Part shown: positions 26,220-59,530 of the stretch, one piece after another
How the letters are laid out: the number at the start of each line of letters is the position of its first letter
Numbering within the stretch: position 1 is the stretch's first letter
Virus record (IMG/VR): IMGVR_UViG_3300013132_000024
Length of the DNA stretch: 64,000 nt
Origin: an uncultured virus (IMG/VR IMGVR_UViG_3300013132_000024)
Taxonomy: Duplodnaviria > Heunggongvirae > Uroviricota > Caudoviricetes
Reading direction: 5' to 3' (one strand)
Made by a program: the position numbers and the translations under genes
Notes under the pieces: generated by a model
Told to the model about the DNA's origin: nothing
The model's database searches: none
What the model saw: only the letters and a program-made list of their open reading frames with translations

Positions 26220-26248
26220 ATTATAACGTCTATTTTATTTATGGTAAA
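26220..26248 (-). promoter_or_regulatory. Early (sigma70-like) phage promoter
   Basis: TTTACC-N17-TATAAT. Confidence 0.7.
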
Positions 26249-26255
26249 CTTTCTT

Positions 26256-26852
26256 TTATCTTTTAAATAATCTAGGAGATTGCCTATTTCCTTGTTCATC
26301 ATCAAAAGCAATTTGATCTCTAGGTTTAATATTATGATAATTAGCTATCATATTAGATGGAAATGTTCTTGTAGATGTATTTAAGGCCTGAACACGTGCA
26401 ATATATCTATTACGAGTCATATTACATTGATTTTCTGTTTGTTTTAACTCTTTTTGTAAAGATAAAAAGTTAGCAGAAGAAGCCATATTTGGTACTGATT
26501 CTGCAACAGCTAATAATCGTGTCATTACAGAACCCATACCTTTTTGAGCTTCAACAAAAGCTTGTATTTGTTCTGTAGTTGGATTATCTGGTAATTTAAT
26601 TTGACCAATTCTAGAACGCATTTCTGCATTTCCTAATACTAAATCTTTTTCTTGTTTAGTAAATGCTTCTACAGTAGATTGCAAATTAGTAAATAAATCT
26701 GCTCTCTTTTGATAACAAGAAGCTATTTGTCTTTCAGCAGCAGTTACTGCTTCGTCTTTACTTTGTAAACCATTATAAGTTCCCCACCAAATTGCTCCTA
26801 CTAATAAAATCAATGAAGTAACTATTATACCGAAAACACCAGTACTGTTCAT
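26256..26852 (-). CDS. LemA family protein
   Basis: N-terminal TM, YNGL..DE, YQKRADL, FLSLQKEL..TEN, RTFPSNMIA. Confidence 0.85.
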   Translation of the reverse strand: MNSTGVFGIIVTSLILLVGAIWWGTYNGLQSKDEAVTAAERQIASCYQKRADLFTNLQSTVEAFTKQEKDLVLGNAEMRSRIGQIKLPDNPTTEQIQAFVEAQKGMGSVMTRLLAVAESVPNMASSANFLSLQKELKQTENQCNMTRNRYIARVQALNTSTRTFPSNMIANYHNIKPRDQIAFDDEQGNRQSPRLFKR

Positions 26853-32589: not shown

Positions 32590-32681
32590 TGGTTGGCGTG
32601 TACAGATTCGAACTGTATCGAGAACCCTAATCTGGGGCTGAAAGGTTTATAAAACCTCCCTGTGTACCAACACCCACGCCA
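32590..32681 (-). tRNA. tRNA-Ile(UAU)-like with long variable arm
   Basis: TGGCGTG/CACGCCA-A-CCA, loop TTTATAA, T arm TACAG-TTCGAAT-CTGTA. Confidence 0.7.
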
Positions 32682-34130: not shown

Positions 34131-34206
34131 TGGTGCCAATATCCGGCCTCGAACCGAATCCTATTCCTTACCAAAGAATTATGCTACCAGTGTACACTCT
34201 ATCGGC
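34131..34206 (-). tRNA. tRNA-Thr(GGU)
   Basis: Loop TTGGTAA, CCA. Confidence 0.85.
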
Positions 34207-34694: not shown

Positions 34695-35313
34695 AAATTT
34701 ATTAATCTTCAAAATTAGAAACAGGAGCTTCTATTCCCTTATATTTATCATTTTTTTCTTTCAGTTTTTGAGCCATTAATTTTTTTCTGGCTTTTAAAGC
34801 TCTAATTTCTTCAGTTCTCTTTTTCAACTCTTCATAATTCATTTGTATCTCTTAAGGATTATTCATATCATCAAAAAAGGTTTTTGTCCAACTAGTATCA
34901 ATAGGTTTTCTTTCTACATTATTATCTAATGCAATTTTATCTAATACCTCATTAAAAAATTTCATTGATCTTTGAGCTTTTAACATATCTTCTGTATCTA
35001 ATGATTTCGCCACTTTCTTTTTAGCAGATTTTAATTTTGGTTTGTTTTCATCTGTATCAGATAACAAATATCTGTCTAAAATCGGAAATGATACCTTGGT
35101 TGTTATAGATACTAATTCTATAATAGCTAATACACCTTGTACTTGTGGTATATCTTTAGCCATATTATAAAAATCGTCTACTGTTTTATTCCATTCTTCC
35201 TGAGTAGTTCCTCCTTCTATACATTTTATTATATCTTCGCCTATTGTTAGGAAATGAGGAATAAGTGATATTATATTTAACATTATACTATCCTTAAATT
35301 ATTAAGACTAATA

Positions 35314-35733
35314 CTATTTATCTTTACATGCTTCTTTTAATGCTTTTGCATCTTCTAAAGCATTATGTGGGATAGTAGAATATGTTGGCGGAGAATGTAT
35401 TAAATGAAATTTATATTCTCCTTTTAATCTTATACCCTCAGGTTTACATAATAATTCGAGAAAAAATGCTAAATCTTCTGGCCAATCTGCAACTATATCT
35501 GTTGCAGGAAATTCCAAATTTAATAACCAATCCCAAAGTTTTTTCTGTAAAATTTCTCTAGAAATTGGATCTTTATTTAAGTAAGGAATAACATTTTCTA
35601 ATACCCATGGATGACATTTTTTATCATCCCATTGTAACACTTCATAAAATTCATGTCCTATTTCTGACACAATTCCCAGGGAAATTAAATCTCCCTGGAA
35701 ACTTGTAAATTCTGTATCAATATACAGAATCAT
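35314..35733 (-). CDS. DEDDh 3'-5' exoribonuclease (Rv2179c/RNase AS-like)
   Basis: YIDTEF, LISLGIV, WV.ENVIP.L, ADWPED, HNALEDA. Confidence 0.85.
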   Translation of the reverse strand: MILYIDTEFTSFQGDLISLGIVSEIGHEFYEVLQWDDKKCHPWVLENVIPYLNKDPISREILQKKLWDWLLNLEFPATDIVADWPEDLAFFLELLCKPEGIRLKGEYKFHLIHSPPTYSTIPHNALEDAKALKEACKDK

Positions 35734-37184
35734 TATACTGTTAGTCCTTCTATATCATATCTATTTGATAATATTACATCTAACATTACGTTATATGGAC
35801 TATATCTTTCCATATCGCTCTTTAAAATAGACTTAAAGATAGAAGTAGAAAATCCAGACACAATAGCTGTATTACTATCGTGCATCTTTACCGGATTATT
35901 ATCCGATCTGCCATTAATTTGCCAGAAAACTACTGTTGGTAATACATATCCATATCTTTCGTACATTTCCTTAGCGTTGTTAAACATTGTTTGGTTTGGA
36001 TTCTTTATGCAAGAATTAAATTCCATATCAGACAATATTAACAATACTTTAGGCATATCTTCAGCAGATACCTTATTCTTTATAGCTACCTTAAGAATTT
36101 CTTCAAAAGCTGCTTCTACGTTTGTAGACATAGACCAATGTGATCTTTGCATTTGAGTTATTTTAGAAACTAAATCACCAGAAAGCTTTTGTATCTTAGG
36201 GTCATCTGAGAATGTCATAAACATTCCAGAGAAATCACCTGTTTGCTTATCTGCACAATATAAACCTACCGATAAAGCAATATCCATTGGAGTTACCTTT
36301 ATCTTAGGATCTATTGGTTTTTGACCATAATAACCCCAAGAAGTCATAGATGCAGATACATCTACTACTGGTAATATCTTATTATCACCTAAGTAATTTG
36401 GTAATGCTTCCCATTGAGCTAATGATACTTCTCTATCTCCATTATTCAGAGACTTAATAATATCATATGGATATACTGCTCCAACATTTACTTTACGTTC
36501 GGTTTTACCAGTTTCAGGATCAACTTTCTTTAATCCTTCTTTATATGCCTTATATGCATCACCACAATGGCGAGAAAATGCTTTTTGATAACGTGAGGAA
36601 GCTACAGATGGAACATGATCGAATACAATCTTATCCCATTCACGGGCACACATTTGCTGTTCTACTGTCTTAGACAAATTAGATAAGGTTTTACGATATC
36701 TCTTAGGTGTATATTCTAAAAATTTACGCAATTCTTCTGCTTTAACACCCTTACGTGGCATCCACTTAGCAGTTAAACCATTCCCGTCGTTTAGAGCATC
36801 TTTAATCATTCTGAATGCCTTCGCTTTTATTTTTGGCGAAGTAAATACCAATAAGTCATCCCAGCGGCCTAAGATAGGAATCATCGGTAATAACTTAATT
36901 GCATCATCTTCATAATGTTTTTCAATATGTTTTAATAAATTACGGAAGGTTTCACGTTCACCTGCACCGCCACGAATATCTCTAGTCCATAAAGCTACAC
37001 GATAAGCATGAGATTTATTTTCAGCCAAAGCTAAATCAAATTCATTCTTTAGATCAACTGCACGATTACCAGCAGCACTAAAAAAATCTAATACTCTAGA
37101 TTCGCTAGTTCTGTTAGTAACAGCCCCATTAAAAGTTTTTCCTATCAATTGATCATTCTTTACTGCATTAACAAACGCATTCAT
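35733..37184 (-). CDS. DUF2828-type Ro60/TROVE-like protein with C-terminal vWA domain
   Basis: N-terminal RDIRGGAGER, GRWDDL, AKWMPR, VEQQMC; MIDAS DVSASM...ST...LSDMEF, SGFS. Confidence 0.8.
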   Translation of the reverse strand: MNAFVNAVKNDQLIGKTFNGAVTNRTSESRVLDFFSAAGNRAVDLKNEFDLALAENKSHAYRVALWTRDIRGGAGERETFRNLLKHIEKHYEDDAIKLLPMIPILGRWDDLLVFTSPKIKAKAFRMIKDALNDGNGLTAKWMPRKGVKAEELRKFLEYTPKRYRKTLSNLSKTVEQQMCAREWDKIVFDHVPSVASSRYQKAFSRHCGDAYKAYKEGLKKVDPETGKTERKVNVGAVYPYDIIKSLNNGDREVSLAQWEALPNYLGDNKILPVVDVSASMTSWGYYGQKPIDPKIKVTPMDIALSVGLYCADKQTGDFSGMFMTFSDDPKIQKLSGDLVSKITQMQRSHWSMSTNVEAAFEEILKVAIKNKVSAEDMPKVLLILSDMEFNSCIKNPNQTMFNNAKEMYERYGYVLPTVVFWQINGRSDNNPVKMHDSNTAIVSGFSTSIFKSILKSDMERYSPYNVMLDVILSNRYDIEGLTV

Positions 37185-37199
37185 TTTAATATCTCCTTA

Positions 37200-37237
37200 C
37201 AGATTCATTGTTTAATAATATTGCTGTTTTTGAATCT
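37200..37237 (-). ncRNA. CAGCA-stem unit 7 (minimal), leader of Ro-like gene
   Basis: AGATTCA-AAAA-CAGCAA...TGAATCT-G directly followed by TAAGGAG RBS. Confidence 0.65.
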
Positions 37238-38177
37238 AAATCGGTGTATGGACTTTTTCTTTACCGTATCCAATTGTTCTTTTTACTTTATCTGGATTTT
37301 CTTGCATCCATTGTTGGACAAACCACAATTGTCCACAACCACCACCAATCGTATCCTGCCCCGCCGGATCGAATACTCTTACATTATAACCTTTACATAA
37401 AAGTTTGTTACCAAAATCAACTGCTAAATCTCTTTGATGTTGATTTGTAGCTTCAATACCTTCTGAACGTTCACATATTACAGATACTGTTGCACACCAT
37501 TTACCTGGGTCAAACAGTTTATATAATCTATTCACATCTTCATCGGACACATTATTATCATGTGTACAATAATTGAAATAAGGTTTTCTGCCTGTTGCAT
37601 AAAACCAATTGGTACCACAATCTGCAATTTGTTGCAAGTTTAATTTATTCTTAAATGGTATTAATTTATCTCTAGAATCATCAGTTGATTCATGAATCGA
37701 AAATTGTAACCCTATTTTAGAAATTCTTCTAGATATATCATATACAAGATTATAATCTATTTTAGGTGCTGATGTAGAAATTAATAATGCTGCATGAGGA
37801 TATGTGATATCTAAATCCTCAATAGCTACAATCAAGTTTTTTAAATTAAGCAATGGTTCACCCATTGACATAAACATAATTTGAAGTCTATTAATTTCTG
37901 ATGGTGAAACACCAGTATTTTTTAAGCAATGTTCTACTTGATCAACAATTTCTTCTGGTGTTAATGATCTTACAAAATAATCACCAGCACCACAAAATCT
38001 ACATCCAACAGGACATCCTGATTGTGTAGAACAACAAATTACTGTTCGTTCTGCATATGTCGGGTATCTATATAAAACTGCTTCTGCAACCGCATTATCT
38101 TTATTAAAGATAAATTTGGTTACATGTTCTTTTTGATCTTCAACCGTTTTTACGGATGTCCAAGAATTGTATAACAT
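37236..38177 (-). CDS. RlmN/Cfr-like radical SAM RNA methyltransferase
   Basis: CCSTQSGCPVGCRFC (CxxxCxxC), MSMGEP, SIH, GCGQL. Confidence 0.88.
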   Translation of the reverse strand: MLYNSWTSVKTVEDQKEHVTKFIFNKDNAVAEAVLYRYPTYAERTVICCSTQSGCPVGCRFCGAGDYFVRSLTPEEIVDQVEHCLKNTGVSPSEINRLQIMFMSMGEPLLNLKNLIVAIEDLDITYPHAALLISTSAPKIDYNLVYDISRRISKIGLQFSIHESTDDSRDKLIPFKNKLNLQQIADCGTNWFYATGRKPYFNYCTHDNNVSDEDVNRLYKLFDPGKWCATVSVICERSEGIEATNQHQRDLAVDFGNKLLCKGYNVRVFDPAGQDTIGGGCGQLWFVQQWMQENPDKVKRTIGYGKEKVHTPI

Positions 38178-38195
38178 TATAATCCTTTATAATAA

Positions 38196-38302
38196 CTGAA
38201 TAGTGGGGAAACTAGATTTCTCTAGCAGGCAACCTGCCCAACTCCCCATATGGCGGGGAGCCTTGGAATCGAACCAAGTATATATTTTGCTGTATCTATT
38301 CA
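38196..38302 (-). ncRNA. CAGCA-stem unit with circularly permuted tRNA module (YrlA-like architecture)
   Basis: TGAATAG-ATA-CAGCA...T arm CTTGG-TTCGATT-CCAAG, GCTCCCC-GCCA-TAT-GGGGAGT, hairpins...CTATTCA-G. Confidence 0.8.
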
Positions 38303-38315
38303 AAAAAAATGTAAA

Positions 38316-38537
38316 TTATTTTCCAAATAACGAAAACGATTTATTTCTTCTATCTAATTTAGGATTTTTATAATCTTTTCCTTTTGTTTTAGTTTTATTA
38401 TTACCAGATTTTGCCTTAGTCCATTGCATTTGTTGAAAATAATATTCAAAATATGTTCTTTCAGTGCTTTTACCAAAATTTTCGTTGTAAGCACCAGATC
38501 TAAGACCCCAAAATTCGTTTGATGAAATATTAATCAT
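38316..38537 (-). CDS. Small basic hypothetical protein within the ncRNA array
   Basis: 73 aa ORF between array units. Confidence 0.45.
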   Translation of the reverse strand: MINISSNEFWGLRSGAYNENFGKSTERTYFEYYFQQMQWTKAKSGNNKTKTKGKDYKNPKLDRRNKSFSLFGK

Positions 38538-38567
38538 ATTTTGTCTCTATATACAAAAATGTCATAA

Positions 38568-38668
38568 CTGAATACCTTTTTGTTGCTCTACCTTATGAGC
38601 TATATTTACTAGTTATGGAGGAAATACCAAGTACACACAATTTATGTGTTTGTTGCTGCAAGTATTCA
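38568..38668 (-). ncRNA. CAGCA-stem unit with tRNA D arm
   Basis: TGAATAC-TTG-CAGCA...TAGCTCATAAGGTAGAGC...GTATTCA-G. Confidence 0.75.
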
Positions 38669-38685
38669 AAACTAACAGTATATTA

Positions 38686-38780
38686 CTGGATAGCTGCCTA
38701 CTTTTTTATTACCGTGAGAAATCGAAACTTACGTGGCTTGCATACACTGCAAATATTATTTATTCTGCTGTATCTATCCA
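38686..38780 (-). ncRNA. CAGCA-stem unit with T-loop-like hairpin
   Basis: TGGATAG-ATA-CAGCA...CGTAAG-TTTCGATTT-CTCACG...CTATCCA-G. Confidence 0.75.
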
Positions 38781-38870
38781 AAAGTTTTTGTTAACATTAA
38801 TATTATTAAAAACATCAATATTGTTAACACTAATACAATTTTATCCAACCATTTAGGGTTGTTCATATTA

Positions 38871-38960
38871 CAGAAACCTTTTGACGGAATCGAACCGTTC
38901 TTCCTGTATTAAAACAAGTGCTCTACCATTGAGCTATTTTTATTTTGCTGTAAGGTTTCT
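38871..38960 (-). ncRNA. CAGCA-stem unit with D arm, anticodon-like arm and T arm
   Basis: AGAAACC-TTA-CAGCA...TAGCTCAATGGTAGAGC...ACGG-TTCGATT-CCGT...GGTTTCT-G; no acceptor/CCA. Confidence 0.8.
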
Positions 38961-38974
38961 TTATCTAAAGTTAA

Positions 38975-39040
38975 CTGTATGGTTTTTGTCGATCAAGACA
39001 TAATGGAAGTTATGATCTATTTTTTTGCTGAACCCATACA
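38975..39040 (-). ncRNA. CAGCA-stem unit
   Basis: TGTATGG-GTT-CAGCA...CCATACA-G. Confidence 0.75.
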
Positions 39041-39047
39041 AAAATAT

Positions 39048-39108
39048 CAGGATGCTTTTACTTGCTCGTTTGATACAACGAATGTAAATTGTTTGCTGAA
39101 TGCATCCT
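39048..39108 (-). ncRNA. CAGCA-stem unit
   Basis: AGGATGC-ATT-CAGCA...TTCGTTG-TAT-CAAACGAG...GCATCCT-G. Confidence 0.75.
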
Positions 39109-39509
39109 TAATTATTCCAGAAGTTCTCGTTTATAAAATTATCAAATAAACAATTGATATACATAACAATAAACTGAAATTAACTACTAATCCTACCTTA
39201 TATCTACTAGGATATTTCATCATTTCTGATATATTTCGTATCGTTACCGAACATAATAGAAATGATCTTAACATCAGTAGTAGTGTTACAAGGTTTTTAT
39301 CCATCATTTAAACTCTCGAGCCTTGATTATATACTCGTTTCTTTTACCAGAAGGATAAGACCAGTCAAATTCTATCGCATAGCCTCTTATTATACAACCA
39401 TAATTCGTTATAGCTTCTATATAAACATTCGATTTAAACGGCCCCCAATTCTTTTTATTTTTTCTTAGGATCCATTCCATCAAGAATCTCCAAGTAGCTA
39501 TTATAGAGT

Positions 39510-39538
39510 ATAATACTTTCTAATAATTAGGAAGTAAA
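39510..39538 (-). promoter_or_regulatory. Early promoter upstream of the ncRNA array/Ro-like operon
   Basis: AAAAGAAC-TTTACT-N17-TATTAT. Confidence 0.7.
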
Positions 39539-39577
39539 GTTCTTTTTTTGGTATATTCAACCGAATTAACTTGTAAT

Positions 39578-39652
39578 TGGCAGGGGTAGCCAGAATTGAA
39601 CTGACATCTCTGGGTCCAAAGCCCAGCGTAATAGCCATTATACAATACCCCA
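39578..39652 (-). tRNA. tRNA-Gln(UUG)
   Basis: Loop CTTTGGA, G-CCA. Confidence 0.88.
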
Positions 39653-39659
39653 AAACAGC

Positions 39660-40719
39660 TTATGCTGCTTTATTCCAATATAATACACTAGTTCCTTTTT
39701 TCAATTTTCTATTAATAGAAGTTGATTGAACAAATATCTTATAATGAGAATGATCGCCAGGTGATAATGAAAAATCACTATTCAATGGTAATCCTAGCAA
39801 ATTTCTAGCATGTACACCTGAATAAAAACCACCGTTTTTTAAATCTTGTATTACAATTTTCTTATACGGTTGTATTTTTCTTTCGTATTTAGTTAATTCA
39901 TAGAATGCTGAACCCTTATTTAAGGTAACATTTTTCTTTCTTTGTATAAATTTAGAAATTTGTTCATCTTCTTTATCTACAAAGAACACATCAAATTCTG
40001 ATGTATCAACTGATTTTAATGTATTTTTTACTTTATCAGAAGATACATTAGATAAATCGGAATAAAACCCTCTTGTAGAGGTTAAACCTTTAGATACATT
40101 AGAATAATATGTATCATACGCTGATGTAGTTGCTACTGTAGTATTTAGCATACTTTCTTCAGTTTGATCCCATTCAATAATATTTCCAGCAGGTATACCA
40201 TATCTGGTTAAGTTAGAAGTATACCCTCTTGGTACCCTAAAAGTAAAGGTCCATTTATCTGTAGATTGTAATTCTCTTATAGTTTGTTCTAATTTAGAAC
40301 CTGTGGTTTTAGAAGCATTTTCTGCACCATCGGTAATAACCTGTACTAAAAAATGTTACATTAGGATCATTATAATCCGGAACAGTTTTCATAATACGAA
40401 CAAGTTCCATTACAGAATCAAATAATGGTGTTTGACCACCAGTACCATAATACGATAATGGTTTAATTAAACTTACTTCAGTTAAAAATGTTTCATTTTT
40501 AACATATGTGTCGCAAATAACTGTTGATACATATGTATCAATATCATATTTGTTTGATAAATCTTTAATTGTTTGTATTTGGTTGTTATAATCTTTTAAT
40601 GCTGCACGAGCAATTGAATACATTGATCCTGAATGATCTCTAGATATACCTATATATTGTTTTCTTTTTACAGAAGTATTAGTTGTATTTTTCTTTGTAG
40701 ATTTTTTCTTTGTAGCCAT
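39660..40719 (-). pseudogene. vWA-domain protein split by a one-base frameshift
   Basis: RDHSGSM and GGQTPLFD in 40309..40719; removing one T from T6 at 40348-40353 restores FLVQVITDGAENAS and fuses into 39660..40151. Confidence 0.8.
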
Positions 40720-41042
40720 TTGTATATTCCTTATATTATTTTGTATTAATTATATTTCATTTGTATAAAAATGTAGAACATATGCTCCATTATCAAACAT
40801 TAATGTTCGAAGATATTTAGTCTTTTTCCCATTTATGTATGGAATTTCTTTTCCTGTTTCTACTGCCATAATATATGAGAAAAATTCTTGGTCTGCATTA
40901 GTATCATTCGTATAATAAACTACAACATTATTATACTGTAATTCTACAGTAAGAATTTTTCCGTCATGAAAATGCCATATTTTCTTAGGTTGTAATAATA
41001 ATTCATATGAATTAAGTATGATTTGTTTACATATTACAACCA

Positions 41043-41396
41043 TTATATATCCTTATAATGTTTTTCAATGATATCTGCTATTTTATTGAACGATTTGCCA
41101 TTATCATTTAATTTTGTTAAAGATATTAATTTATCTTTAATAATAAACGAACCATCCATACTATTTACACCAGACCAATCTTGTACTGTTTTTGGCAAAT
41201 ACGAAGGTTCAGAATCATAAAAAAGAGTAGAATTATATAAATTACATTTTACCTTAGATGATTTAGATTTAGTAGCTAGATCGCATAAAACACCAAGACA
41301 ACAGAATGTATTTAATCTATTAAGATATTTTTTTCCTTGTTTATACTTTCCTGAACGAAGTGCTTTTACCCAGCGGTCTGCTATTTTCTTTTTCAT
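41043..41396 (-). CDS. Hypothetical protein, paralog of 42623..42991
   Basis: WVKALRSGKYKQG...FCCLGVLC...LND.G.SF..IADIIEK. Confidence 0.75.
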   Translation of the reverse strand: MKKKIADRWVKALRSGKYKQGKKYLNRLNTFCCLGVLCDLATKSKSSKVKCNLYNSTLFYDSEPSYLPKTVQDWSGVNSMDGSFIIKDKLISLTKLNDNGKSFNKIADIIEKHYKDI

Positions 41397-41400
41397 AAAT

Positions 41401-42198
41401 TTACCTAAGACAATGTCTAGGACAAAAAGTATTTCCTATTAATTCCTTAACTGCATCTGGTTTAGAATTACACAAATATCTTATATATTGTACATCATCG
41501 TTAGAACTACTTTTAAATTGACAAGAATTAAGTATTACTGTTTCTGCTTGTTTCCATAAAGTAACAATATTGTATTTTAATTTAGAAGAATTTAATTCTT
41601 TCCAAGCTTTAGGATATTCTTGTTTAGCTTTATCTAAATACGCTTTAACATAACTCATAAGAGCTACTGCACCATCTCTCCATTGATGTTCTTCTTTTTT
41701 ACTAGATAATTTATTAGCTACATGTAAACCATATGTGTATGCATTAAACTCATCTAATAAGATGGAAAAATTTGTAGCTGAAGACATACTGTTTGGTATA
41801 GTCACCAAATAAAGTTCGGTAAATCTATCTGATTTAAACAATTTTAAATTTAGAGCAGGTCTAAATAAATTATTTCCTAATACAACAGGTATATTTTTAC
41901 CATTTATTAATGGATATGTATCTGTTCTAGTAGTTATATCATGTACAGTTTCATGTACTGCTACAATTATATTGTCTTTAACATTATAACAATCATACCA
42001 CCAAGCATTATCTAAATATGAAGTTTTCCCTCTATTATAAATAGAGTATCCTTCAGGACTATGTTGTTTTAATATTTCTATAGATTGATTTTTAATTGTA
42101 GAAGTACATTTTTGTGTATTAGGCCACTTAATATTCTGTGCATAACTACTAGTAGTTGATAATGCAACCAAAATACTGCTAATAATAATTTTTTTCAT
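41401..42198 (-). CDS. Secreted protein with HExxH motif
   Basis: Likely start MKKIIISS (signal peptide); VHETVH. Confidence 0.6.
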   Translation of the reverse strand: MKKIIISSILVALSTTSSYAQNIKWPNTQKCTSTIKNQSIEILKQHSPEGYSIYNRGKTSYLDNAWWYDCYNVKDNIIVAVHETVHDITTRTDTYPLINGKNIPVVLGNNLFRPALNLKLFKSDRFTELYLVTIPNSMSSATNFSILLDEFNAYTYGLHVANKLSSKKEEHQWRDGAVALMSYVKAYLDKAKQEYPKAWKELNSSKLKYNIVTLWKQAETVILNSCQFKSSSNDDVQYIRYLCNSKPDAVKELIGNTFCPRHCLR

Positions 42199-42401: not shown

Positions 42402-42477
42402 TGGTTGCGGAGCGTGGGAGTTAAACCCACTCCTTCAGTTTATGAGACTGACGACTTAATCGTTTGTCCTGCCCGCC
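42402..42477 (-). tRNA. tRNA-Met(CAU), fMet-like 3' end
   Basis: Loop CTCATAA, ends CCGCAACCA with 1:72 mismatch. Confidence 0.75.
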
Positions 42478-59453: not shown

Positions 59454-59530
59454 TGGAGAGCCAGGTCGGGCTCGAACCGACATTCTTAGGTTTTGCAGAC
59501 CGTGCCGTAACCATTCCGGCGCACTGACTC
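59454..59530 (-). tRNA. tRNA-Cys(GCA)
   Basis: Loop CTGCAAA, U73-CCA. Confidence 0.85.

Follow-up and report, generated by a model that had tools for sequence, protein, structure and literature searches.

What kind of element has the three internal arms of a tRNA in their natural order and is closed by a stem other than an acceptor stem? Such an element, here called unit C, lies on the minus strand (positions 38868-38964) of a 64,000-nucleotide (nt) stretch of DNA from an uncultured virus of the Caudoviricetes (IMG/VR record IMGVR_UViG_3300013132_000024). The whole stretch is referred to as the window. An original prediction, made from the sequence, had described the element as a tRNA body in which a stem and a CAGCA motif shared by an array of units (the handle) replace the acceptor stem, and had proposed a decoy for anticodon nucleases or a substrate of a neighbouring RlmN-like enzyme. 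Our analysis indicates that unit C is probably a small RNA gene of about 90 nt in a modular, Y-RNA-like family, whose product would be a ligand, equipped with a tRNA-mimic module, of a Ro60-like DUF2828 protein. The strongest associate of the units is the gene of this protein (35733-37184, minus strand), a tie that the original prediction did not contain.

Unit C is a tRNA body without an acceptor end

In the predicted minimum free energy (MFE) structure (-22.4 kcal/mol, z -3.12; 1 of 200 shuffled sequences was equal or better), unit C forms a cloverleaf without an acceptor stem. A covariance model of the handle (R1, described below), whose seed does not contain unit C, matches it with 25.8 bits (E 7.8e-4). 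The RNA is closed by a 9-bp terminal stem between the 5' arm AGAAACCUU (38952-38960) and the 3' arm AAGGUUUCU (38872-38880), the latter followed by GU, which completes a conserved CUGU end. One A separates the 5' arm from the single-stranded conserved CAGCAA (38945-38950). CAGCAA and its preceding bases together read CCUUACAGCAA, and the exact string CCTTACAGCAA is restricted to unit C among the seven units of the window. An A-rich linker leads from CAGCAA to the D arm (38920-38934; GCUC/GAGC with the loop AAUGGUA, which holds the conserved GG). The anticodon-like arm (38903-38918; a 5-bp stem, CUUGU/ACAGG, with the 6-nt loop UUUAAU) and the T arm (38884-38898; ACGG/CCGU with the loop UUCGAUU) follow, and a UCAA linker joins the T arm to the 3' stem arm. 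All these features are on the minus strand. The D and T arms were identified by the Rfam alignment, the MFE fold and an alignment of relatives (A3, see below); the anticodon-like arm was found in the MFE fold and shows compensatory changes in 4 of its 5 pairs in A3. The fold and the R1 match thus bear out the predicted architecture, with D, anticodon-like and T arms in normal order closed by the array stem and the CAGCA handle. For the anticodon-like hairpin, the arm was confirmed and a canonical loop was not, since the loop has 6 nt where the canonical one has 7.

Compared with canonical tRNA (RF00005), unit C has the three arms in the natural order, the D-loop GG, a 5-bp anticodon-type stem and the T-loop sequence UUCGA. 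It differs in that it has no 7-bp acceptor stem, discriminator or 3' CCA, whereas the listed resident tRNAs do end in CCA; its anticodon-type loop is the 6-nt UUUAAU instead of a 7-nt loop with U33 and a purine at position 37; and single-stranded A-rich linkers lead to a foreign closing stem. Consistent with these differences, the Rfam tRNA model covers only its positions 8-63 of 71 on unit C, with 30.3 bits (gathering score 29). In the window, which is AT-rich (29.5% G+C) and phage-like, ARAGORN called 21 tRNA genes and Rfam gave 22 tRNA matches, all on the minus strand; the ARAGORN run over the whole window made no call at unit C. Because the acceptor end is absent, unit C should not be chargeable, as the original prediction had reasoned.

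A conserved handle defines an array of seven units

Unit C belongs to seven tandem units with a common handle on the minus strand of the window (37197-39112). A script that scanned for CAGCA preceded by a stem arm having a downstream complement found six clustered minus-strand units between 39108 and 38197; the remaining candidates in the window were scattered within coding regions and had arms of 6-8 bp. In each of the six, the 5' arm of a terminal stem of 7-9 bp is followed after 1-3 nt by CAGCA(A/G) and an A-rich stretch; a variable insert then precedes the 3' arm, which ends in C-N-G. R1 was seeded with 37 short units (alignment A2), of which units A and B represent the window and the remaining 35 come from other loci. 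When the 64-kb window was searched with R1 with filters off, the best 7 of the 46 listed matches were the seven units (E 6.9e-9 to 8.2e-3), and the next match had an E-value of 0.32.

CAGCA is invariant in all 37 units of A2, as are the G and C..G positions, and 6 of the 8 pairs of the 8-bp stem change on both sides. The covariation score was 0.641 compared with 0.147 in shuffled alignments, and none of 500 shuffles reached it. A terminal U·G pair is present in 28 of the 37 units, which is consistent with an RNA made from this strand, because on the opposite strand the T·G would become an A·C mismatch. The terminal stem was also present in the MFE folds of all seven window units. In the consensus handle, the two ends pair in a stem of 7-9 bp whose third pair is a conserved G-C and whose terminal pair is usually U·G; CAGCAA lies about 3 nt past the stem, and the A-rich 3' side has a C-N-G-U end. 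The handle and the array stem exceed what is expected by chance.

A promoter scan of 35200-40300 gave 22 promoter-like sites where 29 were expected, and a terminator scan of the same region gave 6 terminator-like sites, none of them positioned to delimit units. A megablast search of 36000-42000 against a phage collection returned no near-identical match. Among the sequencing runs listed as containing 37150-39700 there were two DNA runs, which may be the source sample, and no RNA run.

The units are linked to a gene for a protein with a predicted Ro60-like fold

Related loci were retrieved with an alignment of DUF2828 homologues, since a single-protein query returned the contig of the window alone. 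The set comprised 80 viral loci chosen solely for encoding a DUF2828 homologue, the best 80 of 558 confirmed (593 candidate stretches). In a crude scan of these loci, a qualifying stem accompanied 312 of the 1409 CAGCA sites on the strand of the gene and 149 of the 1581 on the other strand; nine control 5-mers gave about 8-19%. R1 (E<=0.01) gave 154 matches in 72 of the 80 loci, and all 154 were on the strand of the DUF2828 gene, with none on the opposite strand. Most matches (135 of 154) were upstream of the gene, 46 of the 154 ended within 50 nt of its start codon, and a unit ending no more than 100 nt upstream of the gene was found in 51 of the 80 loci.

The linkage persists in distant phages at a protein identity of only 30-39%. 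FelixO1 has four units by the stem scan, three of which are matched by R1 at E<=0.01, among tRNAs just past the gene. FelixO1-type units lie at L082 9719-9785, 9886-9943, 10340-10407 and 10427-10551. In the Listeria phages LMTA-57 and cka15, the three units of each phage are located 72-341 nt upstream of the DUF2828 gene, and Campylobacter phage F207 has one just upstream of it. In Staphylococcus phage S-CoN_Ph7, two units lie immediately downstream of the gene, and in Mycobacteriophage Snenia two units occupy an unannotated gap past it.

A reciprocal search started from the RNA. The pattern TAGGATNNNTTCAGCAA was found in at least 138 stretches of viral contigs, of which 80 loci were taken; a DUF2828 gene was present within 4 kb in 22 of the 80, on the same strand in all 22. 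This proportion counts against very tight adjacency. R1 was then applied to 52 distinct pattern loci without the gene: 31 had confirmed units (89 matches, E<=0.001), and the remaining 21 had none, most simply read as chance pattern matches. Whole records were then searched: of 15 with confirmed units and no gene within 4 kb, 9 have the gene elsewhere. Both records that CheckV rates as complete (2 of 2 tested) have it, 7-12 kb from the units. Because the gene is found elsewhere in the record, and 7-12 kb away in complete genomes, units can evidently spread through a long tRNA region. Five records with only a chance pattern match had no DUF2828 gene, two of them being 98-100% complete.

The protein encoded at 35733-37184 has 483 residues and matches Pfam PF25043 (DUF7788; E 1.2e-42), PF11443 (DUF2828; E 2.5e-18) and PHROG 850, annotated as 'RNA-binding protein' (E 5.7e-136). 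Its AlphaFold2 model (22 homologues) has a mean predicted local distance difference test score (pLDDT) of 87 and a predicted template modelling score (pTM) of 0.86. A Foldseek search of this model against the Protein Data Bank (PDB) revealed that the top 11 matches were all Ro60/TROVE structures (E 2e-9 to 1.2e-5, template modelling (TM) scores 0.36-0.61), followed by plain vWA domains. The Ro60/TROVE structures matched were 9kop, 2i91, 1yvr, 2nvo, 1yvp, 9nf8, 9nep, 9nfa and 9nen, the first five of them over the full length (TM 0.46-0.61). In the predicted structure, both parts of the Ro60 fold are present, i.e., the ring of HEAT repeats (TROVE) and the vWA domain. Sequence identity to the Ro60 structures is 12-14%, and a phmmer search against PDB sequences returned no Ro60 chain.

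The DUF2828 family is very large, with at least 7387 homologues at E<=1e-10 among 8000 scored candidates. The gene is present in 710 of 50,697 deposited phage records, including FelixO1-like, Listeria, Staphylococcus, Campylobacter, Bacillus, Vibrio and mycobacterial phages. A protein-cluster look-up returned viral clusters alone and gave no eukaryotic lead. The available text of the literature on DUF2828/DUF7788 (PF25043, PF11443) names no RNA partner and mentions the family in plants and in a tardigrade genome study.

The acceptor-less layout is conserved and tRNA-like modules vary

A total of 213 distinct script-detected units were sorted by T-loop and D-arm motifs. In eight, the T arm precedes the D arm, the permuted, YrlA-like order of unit F of the window; in ten, the D arm comes first. 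Artefacts spanning true tRNAs account for two of the ten, and the rest are unit C and seven others; R1 added one further natural-order case (L022 7556-7654), so that eight other loci share the layout of unit C. RNAalifold on the nine natural-order sequences (alignment A3) recovered the handle stem and the D, anticodon and T arms, with 19 pairs, 13 of which show compensatory changes; such changes occur in all three arms. The Rfam tRNA model matches two of these relatives without covering an acceptor stem: L045 925-988 with 52.8 bits over model positions 5-66, and L022 7576-7636 with 38.7 bits over positions 6-65. The original prediction had named intact tRNAs at homologous loci as the sign of a simple decayed gene; we looked for them, and the eight other loci share the acceptor-less layout instead.

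The inserts of the different loci represent parts of a tRNA: an isolated anticodon-type stem-loop; a T arm, a closed acceptor hairpin and a D arm; or a full acceptor-less body. Canonical anticodon-type hairpins (a stem of at least 4 bp and a loop Y-U-NNN-R-N) were found in 58 of the 213 candidate units, whereas 20 rounds of shuffling the inserts gave 14 on average and never more than 24. CUUGUAA (UGU) leads the loops with 17 cases, ahead of UUU (6), UGA (4), GCA (4) and UCU (3). None of the seven window units has a canonical 7-nt anticodon-type loop, and AUAUCAA and CAUCAAA, which the two relatives closest to unit C have in this place, are atypical as well. The units sit within phage tRNA arrays, with 108 tRNA or tRNA-Sec matches in 8 loci.

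Other units and neighbouring genes

The other six units of the window, all on the minus strand, carry different modules on the same handle. Unit A (39045-39112; R1 E 6.9e-9) and unit B (38972-39044; E 1.2e-7), the two in the seed, have a short hairpin module each. The others lie outside the seed. Unit D (38683-38784; E 3.3e-4) has a CAGCAG-variant handle and a module with a T-arm-like hairpin, and unit E (38565-38672; E 2.9e-5) has a D arm at the end of its module, as found by the D-arm motif scan. Unit F (38193-38306; E 9.9e-6) is predicted to fold into a permuted tRNA mimic of YrlA-type topology, in which the T arm is followed by an 8-bp acceptor-like hairpin, whose 3' strand runs into GCCA at the loop, and then by two D-like hairpins. 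Its geometry is indeed opposite to that of unit C, as had been predicted. Unit G (37197-37241; E 8.2e-3) is a minimal handle unit, and 13 nt separate its end from the start codon of the Ro60-like gene, a placement typical of related loci.

The gene that follows the Ro60-like gene on the minus strand (35314-35733) encodes a DEDD-type 3'-5' exoribonuclease-like protein similar to RNase AS/Rv2179c (NCBIfam NF033638, E 2.2e-7, under the family cut-off; PHROG 2259, E 1.7e-27). The start of this gene and the stop of the Ro60-like gene overlap, a hint that the two may be translationally coupled. Homologues of the DEDD gene are found directly upstream of the DUF2828 gene in two related loci (L066 and L070).

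The radical-SAM gene between units F and G (37236-38177, minus strand; 313 residues) is RlmN/Cfr-like, as originally noted, matching TIGR00048 (E 1.4e-29; 103 bits against a family cut-off of 290) and the PDB structure of RlmN, 6fz6 (E 4.7e-17). The protein is without roughly the first 60-70 residues of RlmN. The proposed link between unit C and this enzyme was not conserved, since tblastn (E<=1e-5) found a homologue in none of the 80 related loci that carry the DUF2828 gene. The RlmN-like gene is therefore not a core partner.

The open reading frames (ORFs) that follow the DUF2828 gene in 36 loci were heterogeneous, with no constant partner: metallophosphoesterase (3), RNase H-like (2), PTH2 (2) and vWA (2) proteins, single cases of cREC_REC and SNase, and others. 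Genes related to RNA repair or tRNA recur near the DUF2828 gene, none of them constantly. Examples are the downstream ORFs of L068, L079 and L004, the types including PTH2 peptidyl-tRNA hydrolase, the cREC_REC cyclic-phosphate receiver and metallophosphoesterase. In Listeria phages, an RtcB-type 'tRNA-splicing ligase' lies near the DUF2828 gene (L083 7850-9061 and L087 6852-8063).

Some further features of the window and its relatives were noted. Three Rfam tRNA matches (38.8-42 bits; 34134-34206, 42406-42476 and 59457-59530, minus strand) were not called by ARAGORN. The tRNA-Ile(UAU) that ARAGORN called at 32590-32681 (minus strand) is unusually long, at 92 nt, and no Rfam match over it reaches the gathering score; the gene may contain an intron or be aberrant. 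Two adjacent minus-strand ORFs, 39660-40151 and 40309-40719, match positions 195-345 (C-terminal) and 3-125 (N-terminal), respectively, of the 345 positions of phrog_26613, so that this gene appears to be split or interrupted. In the tRNA and handle-RNA regions of related loci, we found a permuted tmRNA (RF04321, 79.3 bits) at L022 5659-5873 and a group I intron (RF00028, 50.2 bits) at L061 1974-2177.

A proposed mechanism and its alternatives

From the observed structure, conservation, covariation, same-strand gene linkage and predicted protein fold, we infer how the units may be expressed, processed, bound by the protein and used. The seven units would be co-transcribed with the phage tRNA cluster and excised at their conserved flanks, and the Ro60-fold DUF2828 protein, the product of the gene just downstream, would bind the handle. 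In the module of unit C, where the handle replaces the acceptor stem, a tRNA elbow could form and charging would be impossible. The module may thereby show the shape of a tRNA to tRNA-recognising proteins, and either tether them to the Ro60-like ring or sequester them. With the coupled DEDD exoribonuclease, the assembly may be a particle that surveys or degrades RNA, in analogy to the complex of Ro60, Y RNA and PNPase.

Ro60/Y RNA particles occur in animals, some bacteria and a few phages, and their RNA partners are hard to find. The handle RNAs and the DUF2828 protein together point to a widespread, previously undescribed phage RNA-protein particle. The searchable RNA signature (terminal stem, CAGCAA and CUG end) would mark the RNAs that probably partner a very large and uncharacterised family of proteins, whose carriers include the model phage FelixO1 and Listeria and Staphylococcus biocontrol phages. 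The handle RNAs would also account for unannotated gaps within phage tRNA regions, and they suggest that phages build panels of tRNA-shaped modules upon a single handle. The possible functions, among them surveillance of RNA, the tethering of tRNA enzymes and protection from tRNA-cleaving defences, are now directly testable.

Several results weigh against this interpretation. The 8-bp stem of A2 is 95.3% paired, a value that arises partly by construction because the scan that supplied the seed units accepted only candidates with a stem; this selection bears on neither the covariation nor the strand bias of the R1 hits. No R1 match at E<=0.01 was found in 8 of the 80 DUF2828 loci, of which three have no upstream DNA and two show long-insert units detected by the script only. 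In the reciprocal search, 58 of the 80 pattern loci had no DUF2828 gene within 4 kb, and 6 of the 15 whole records with confirmed units had none at all, these six all being fragments (9-62% complete). For the protein, no Pfam TROVE match was found at E<=0.01, the matches being solely PF25043 and PF11443; because its sequence matches neither TROVE nor Ro60 while its fold does, we regard it as a distinct family with a Ro60-like predicted fold. The GNCGAA motif is present in none of the seven window units, and because this Ro-binding motif of YrlA is absent from the handle, the proposed binding of the handle by a Ro-like surface is an analogy. Finally, the transcription published for Listeria phage CKA15 cannot be assigned to units, because the region given with coordinates, the most transcribed one (26,236-26,727 of the record, equivalent to L087 2489-2980; available text of PMC12282133), contains no handle unit on the gene strand. 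That region is probably a different structured RNA of about 490 nt located by tRNA genes.

The main alternatives differ in what they take the handle and the module to be for. According to one, the units are decoys or sponges for host defences that target tRNA, such as anticodon nucleases, with or without the Ro60-like protein. We consider this rather unlikely as the explanation, and it is compatible with the particle proposed above as a downstream role. It agrees with the enrichment of canonical anticodon-type hairpins, with their domination by CUUGUAA, UUU and UCU loops, with the location of the units inside phage tRNA arrays, and with reports that phage tRNAs counter tRNA-targeting defences (PMC10264068, PMC11555353, available text). 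However, a faithful decoy should copy the loop of its target, whereas the 6-nt loop of unit C and the loops of its closest relatives are atypical and no window unit has a canonical one; domain and PHROG scans also identified no defence or counter-defence gene beside the array. A decoy role is therefore possible for the family and weakened for unit C in particular. Another explanation holds that the handle is mainly a cis-acting signal, either a site at which a polycistronic tRNA precursor is processed or an operator in the leader, by means of which the DUF2828 protein would regulate its own mRNA. The interleaving of units with tRNAs, the 46 of 154 units that end within 50 nt of the start codon and the position of unit G 13 nt ahead of it would suit such a signal. 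Nevertheless, we find it improbable: many units are kilobases away from the gene or downstream of it, arrays of up to at least nine units with elaborate covarying tRNA-like modules exceed what an operator or cleavage site needs, and autoregulation by the gene-proximal unit would still imply binding of the handle by the protein.

Two explanations concern unit C itself. RlmN methylates A37 in some tRNAs, and the RlmN/Cfr-like gene, identified by its TIGR00048 and 6fz6 matches, lies inside the array, so that unit C might be a dedicated substrate or guide of this enzyme. We judge this very improbable in view of the absence of the gene from all 80 related loci, its score far under the family cut-off (103 against 290 bits) and a 6-nt loop that gives no clear equivalent of A37. 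The idea that unit C is a decayed tRNA gene or pseudogene that has lost its acceptor stem, with the flanking inverted repeat being incidental, draws on the match of its body to the Rfam tRNA model and on an anticodon loop short by one base. It is hardly tenable and largely refuted, because eight other loci keep the acceptor-less, handle-closed layout with compensatory changes in all three arms. Moreover, the handle is a conserved family feature, and the body is no recent copy of any of the 24 resident tRNAs, for which the best local score was 22 of 53. A small RNA that binds the Ro60-like DUF2828 protein thus remains the interpretation that we prefer.

Comparison with known systems

One of the closest published parallels is found in the bacterial and phage Y RNAs. 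YrlA (Salmonella, Mycobacterium and mycobacteriophages) and Yrn1 (Deinococcus) have an end-pairing stem, a tRNA-like module and a Ro60 gene as a neighbour on the same strand (Chen et al. 2014, PMC4201824). The phage units are likewise small RNAs whose 5' and 3' ends pair, in the folds of all seven window units and with covariation across the 37 units of A2; in Y RNAs, this stem holds the presumed protein site. They also carry tRNA-like modules, often in multiple copies, and lie a few kilobases from a same-strand neighbour whose Ro60-like fold is predicted (all 154 matches, 72 of 80 loci). Unit F shares with YrlA the topology of a T arm, a closed acceptor-like stem and a D arm, whereas unit C resembles Yrn1 in having a stem-loop between the D and T arms at the anticodon position (PMC4201824). 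In contrast to both, the phage partner is a DUF2828/DUF7788 protein, outside Pfam TROVE and 12-14% identical to Ro60 structures, and the handle has CAGCAA beside the stem instead of the Ro-binding motif of YrlA, GNCGAAN0-1G (PMC4201824). None of the Y-RNA-type families of Rfam matches the window units. Because neither the YrlA motif nor a TROVE sequence match was found when tested, our working classification is Y-RNA-like and outside YrlA. As described in the available text, the survey of Chen et al. covered only genomes with an annotated TROVE protein, and its 22 phages included no Felix or Listeria phage (PMC4201824).

Among phage systems, phiRo60 of Thermus phage phiLo binds two Y-like RNAs encoded upstream (Yrl1 and Yrl2, with a CGAA motif) and the host PNPase (PMC12135203, available text). 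It resembles the present system in that a phage protein of Ro60 fold is preceded on the same strand by small RNAs just upstream, and in the Foldseek search its structure (PDB 9KOP) ranked first for the window protein (E 2e-9). The differences are that phiRo60 was found as a Ro60 homologue from UniProt and is about 14% identical to the window protein, and that its RNAs were picked by the CGAA motif in a bulge and comprise two units, with no arrays of tRNA-shaped modules in the available description. For Listeria phage CKA15, the DUF2828 homologue CKA15_055 has been reported to have an Rsr-like HHpred match, and it was detected in purified virions with 20 peptides and 57% coverage (mSystems 2025, PMC12282133, Table 1). 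The Ro60-like protein may thus be packaged and delivered with the genome. The same study described three highly transcribed non-coding regions within 2 kb upstream of CKA15_055, which the authors speculated to be Y RNAs; the available text defines no motif (PMC12282133).

A second resemblance leads to the Class I RNAs of social amoebae. These RNAs, 42-65 nt long, start with AAG and end in CUGU; their 6-bp stem is conserved at the level of structure alone, an 11-nt motif lies past the 5' arm, and the remainder varies (Kjellin et al. 2021, PMC7919456). Their promoter is of the DUSE type, the RRM protein Rnp1A binds them, and the available text reports none outside Dictyostelia (PMC7919456). The phage units share with RF01414 the terminal stem conserved in structure, a 5' G paired with the C of the 3' CUGU and a variable remainder. 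The unpaired 11-nt motif CCUUACAGCAA right after the 5' arm is also shared; this exact string occurs in unit C, which ends in CUGU. Feature for feature, the published description of Class I RNAs corresponds to the phage handle. Short phage units measure 55-70 nt compared with 42-65 nt in Dictyostelium. The units differ in that they often have long tRNA-like inserts and that their hosts are bacterial, and unit C itself, at about 89-97 nt and in a phage, has neither the length, the DUSE promoter nor the dictyostelid genome context of a Class I RNA. RF01414 (Dicty_Class_I) was the sole Rfam family that recurred on the units, with six matches in three small searches: unit A (22.4 bits), unit C (19.5), two FelixO1 units (20.1 and 19.7) and two units of a Staphylococcus phage (22.4 each). 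All of these are below the gathering score of 41.5, no match at gathering level was found in 8 further loci, and a 60-kb search gave no match at E<=0.1. The units thus resemble Class I RNAs in architecture and are outside RF01414 by the Rfam threshold.

Among the papers searched, none linked Class I RNA with Ro60 or Y RNA. Tentatively, and with considerable doubt, we suggest that the CAGCAA-handle phage RNAs and the Dictyostelium Class I RNAs may form one ancient class, the cognate ligands of DUF2828-type Ro60 paralogues. If so, Class I RNAs would not be unique to social amoebae, and the phage arrays would be programmable adaptors that show pieces of tRNA, i.e., anticodon arms, elbows and acceptor minihelices. 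The Class I mechanism would then run via a Ro60-like ring protein. A candidate is DDB_G0281243, listed in the available text of the preprint of PMC7919456 as an uncharacterised protein from the DdR-21 pull-down. The likeness of the handle to Class I RNAs therefore provides a concrete hypothesis on the Class I mechanism, a question that dates from 2004.

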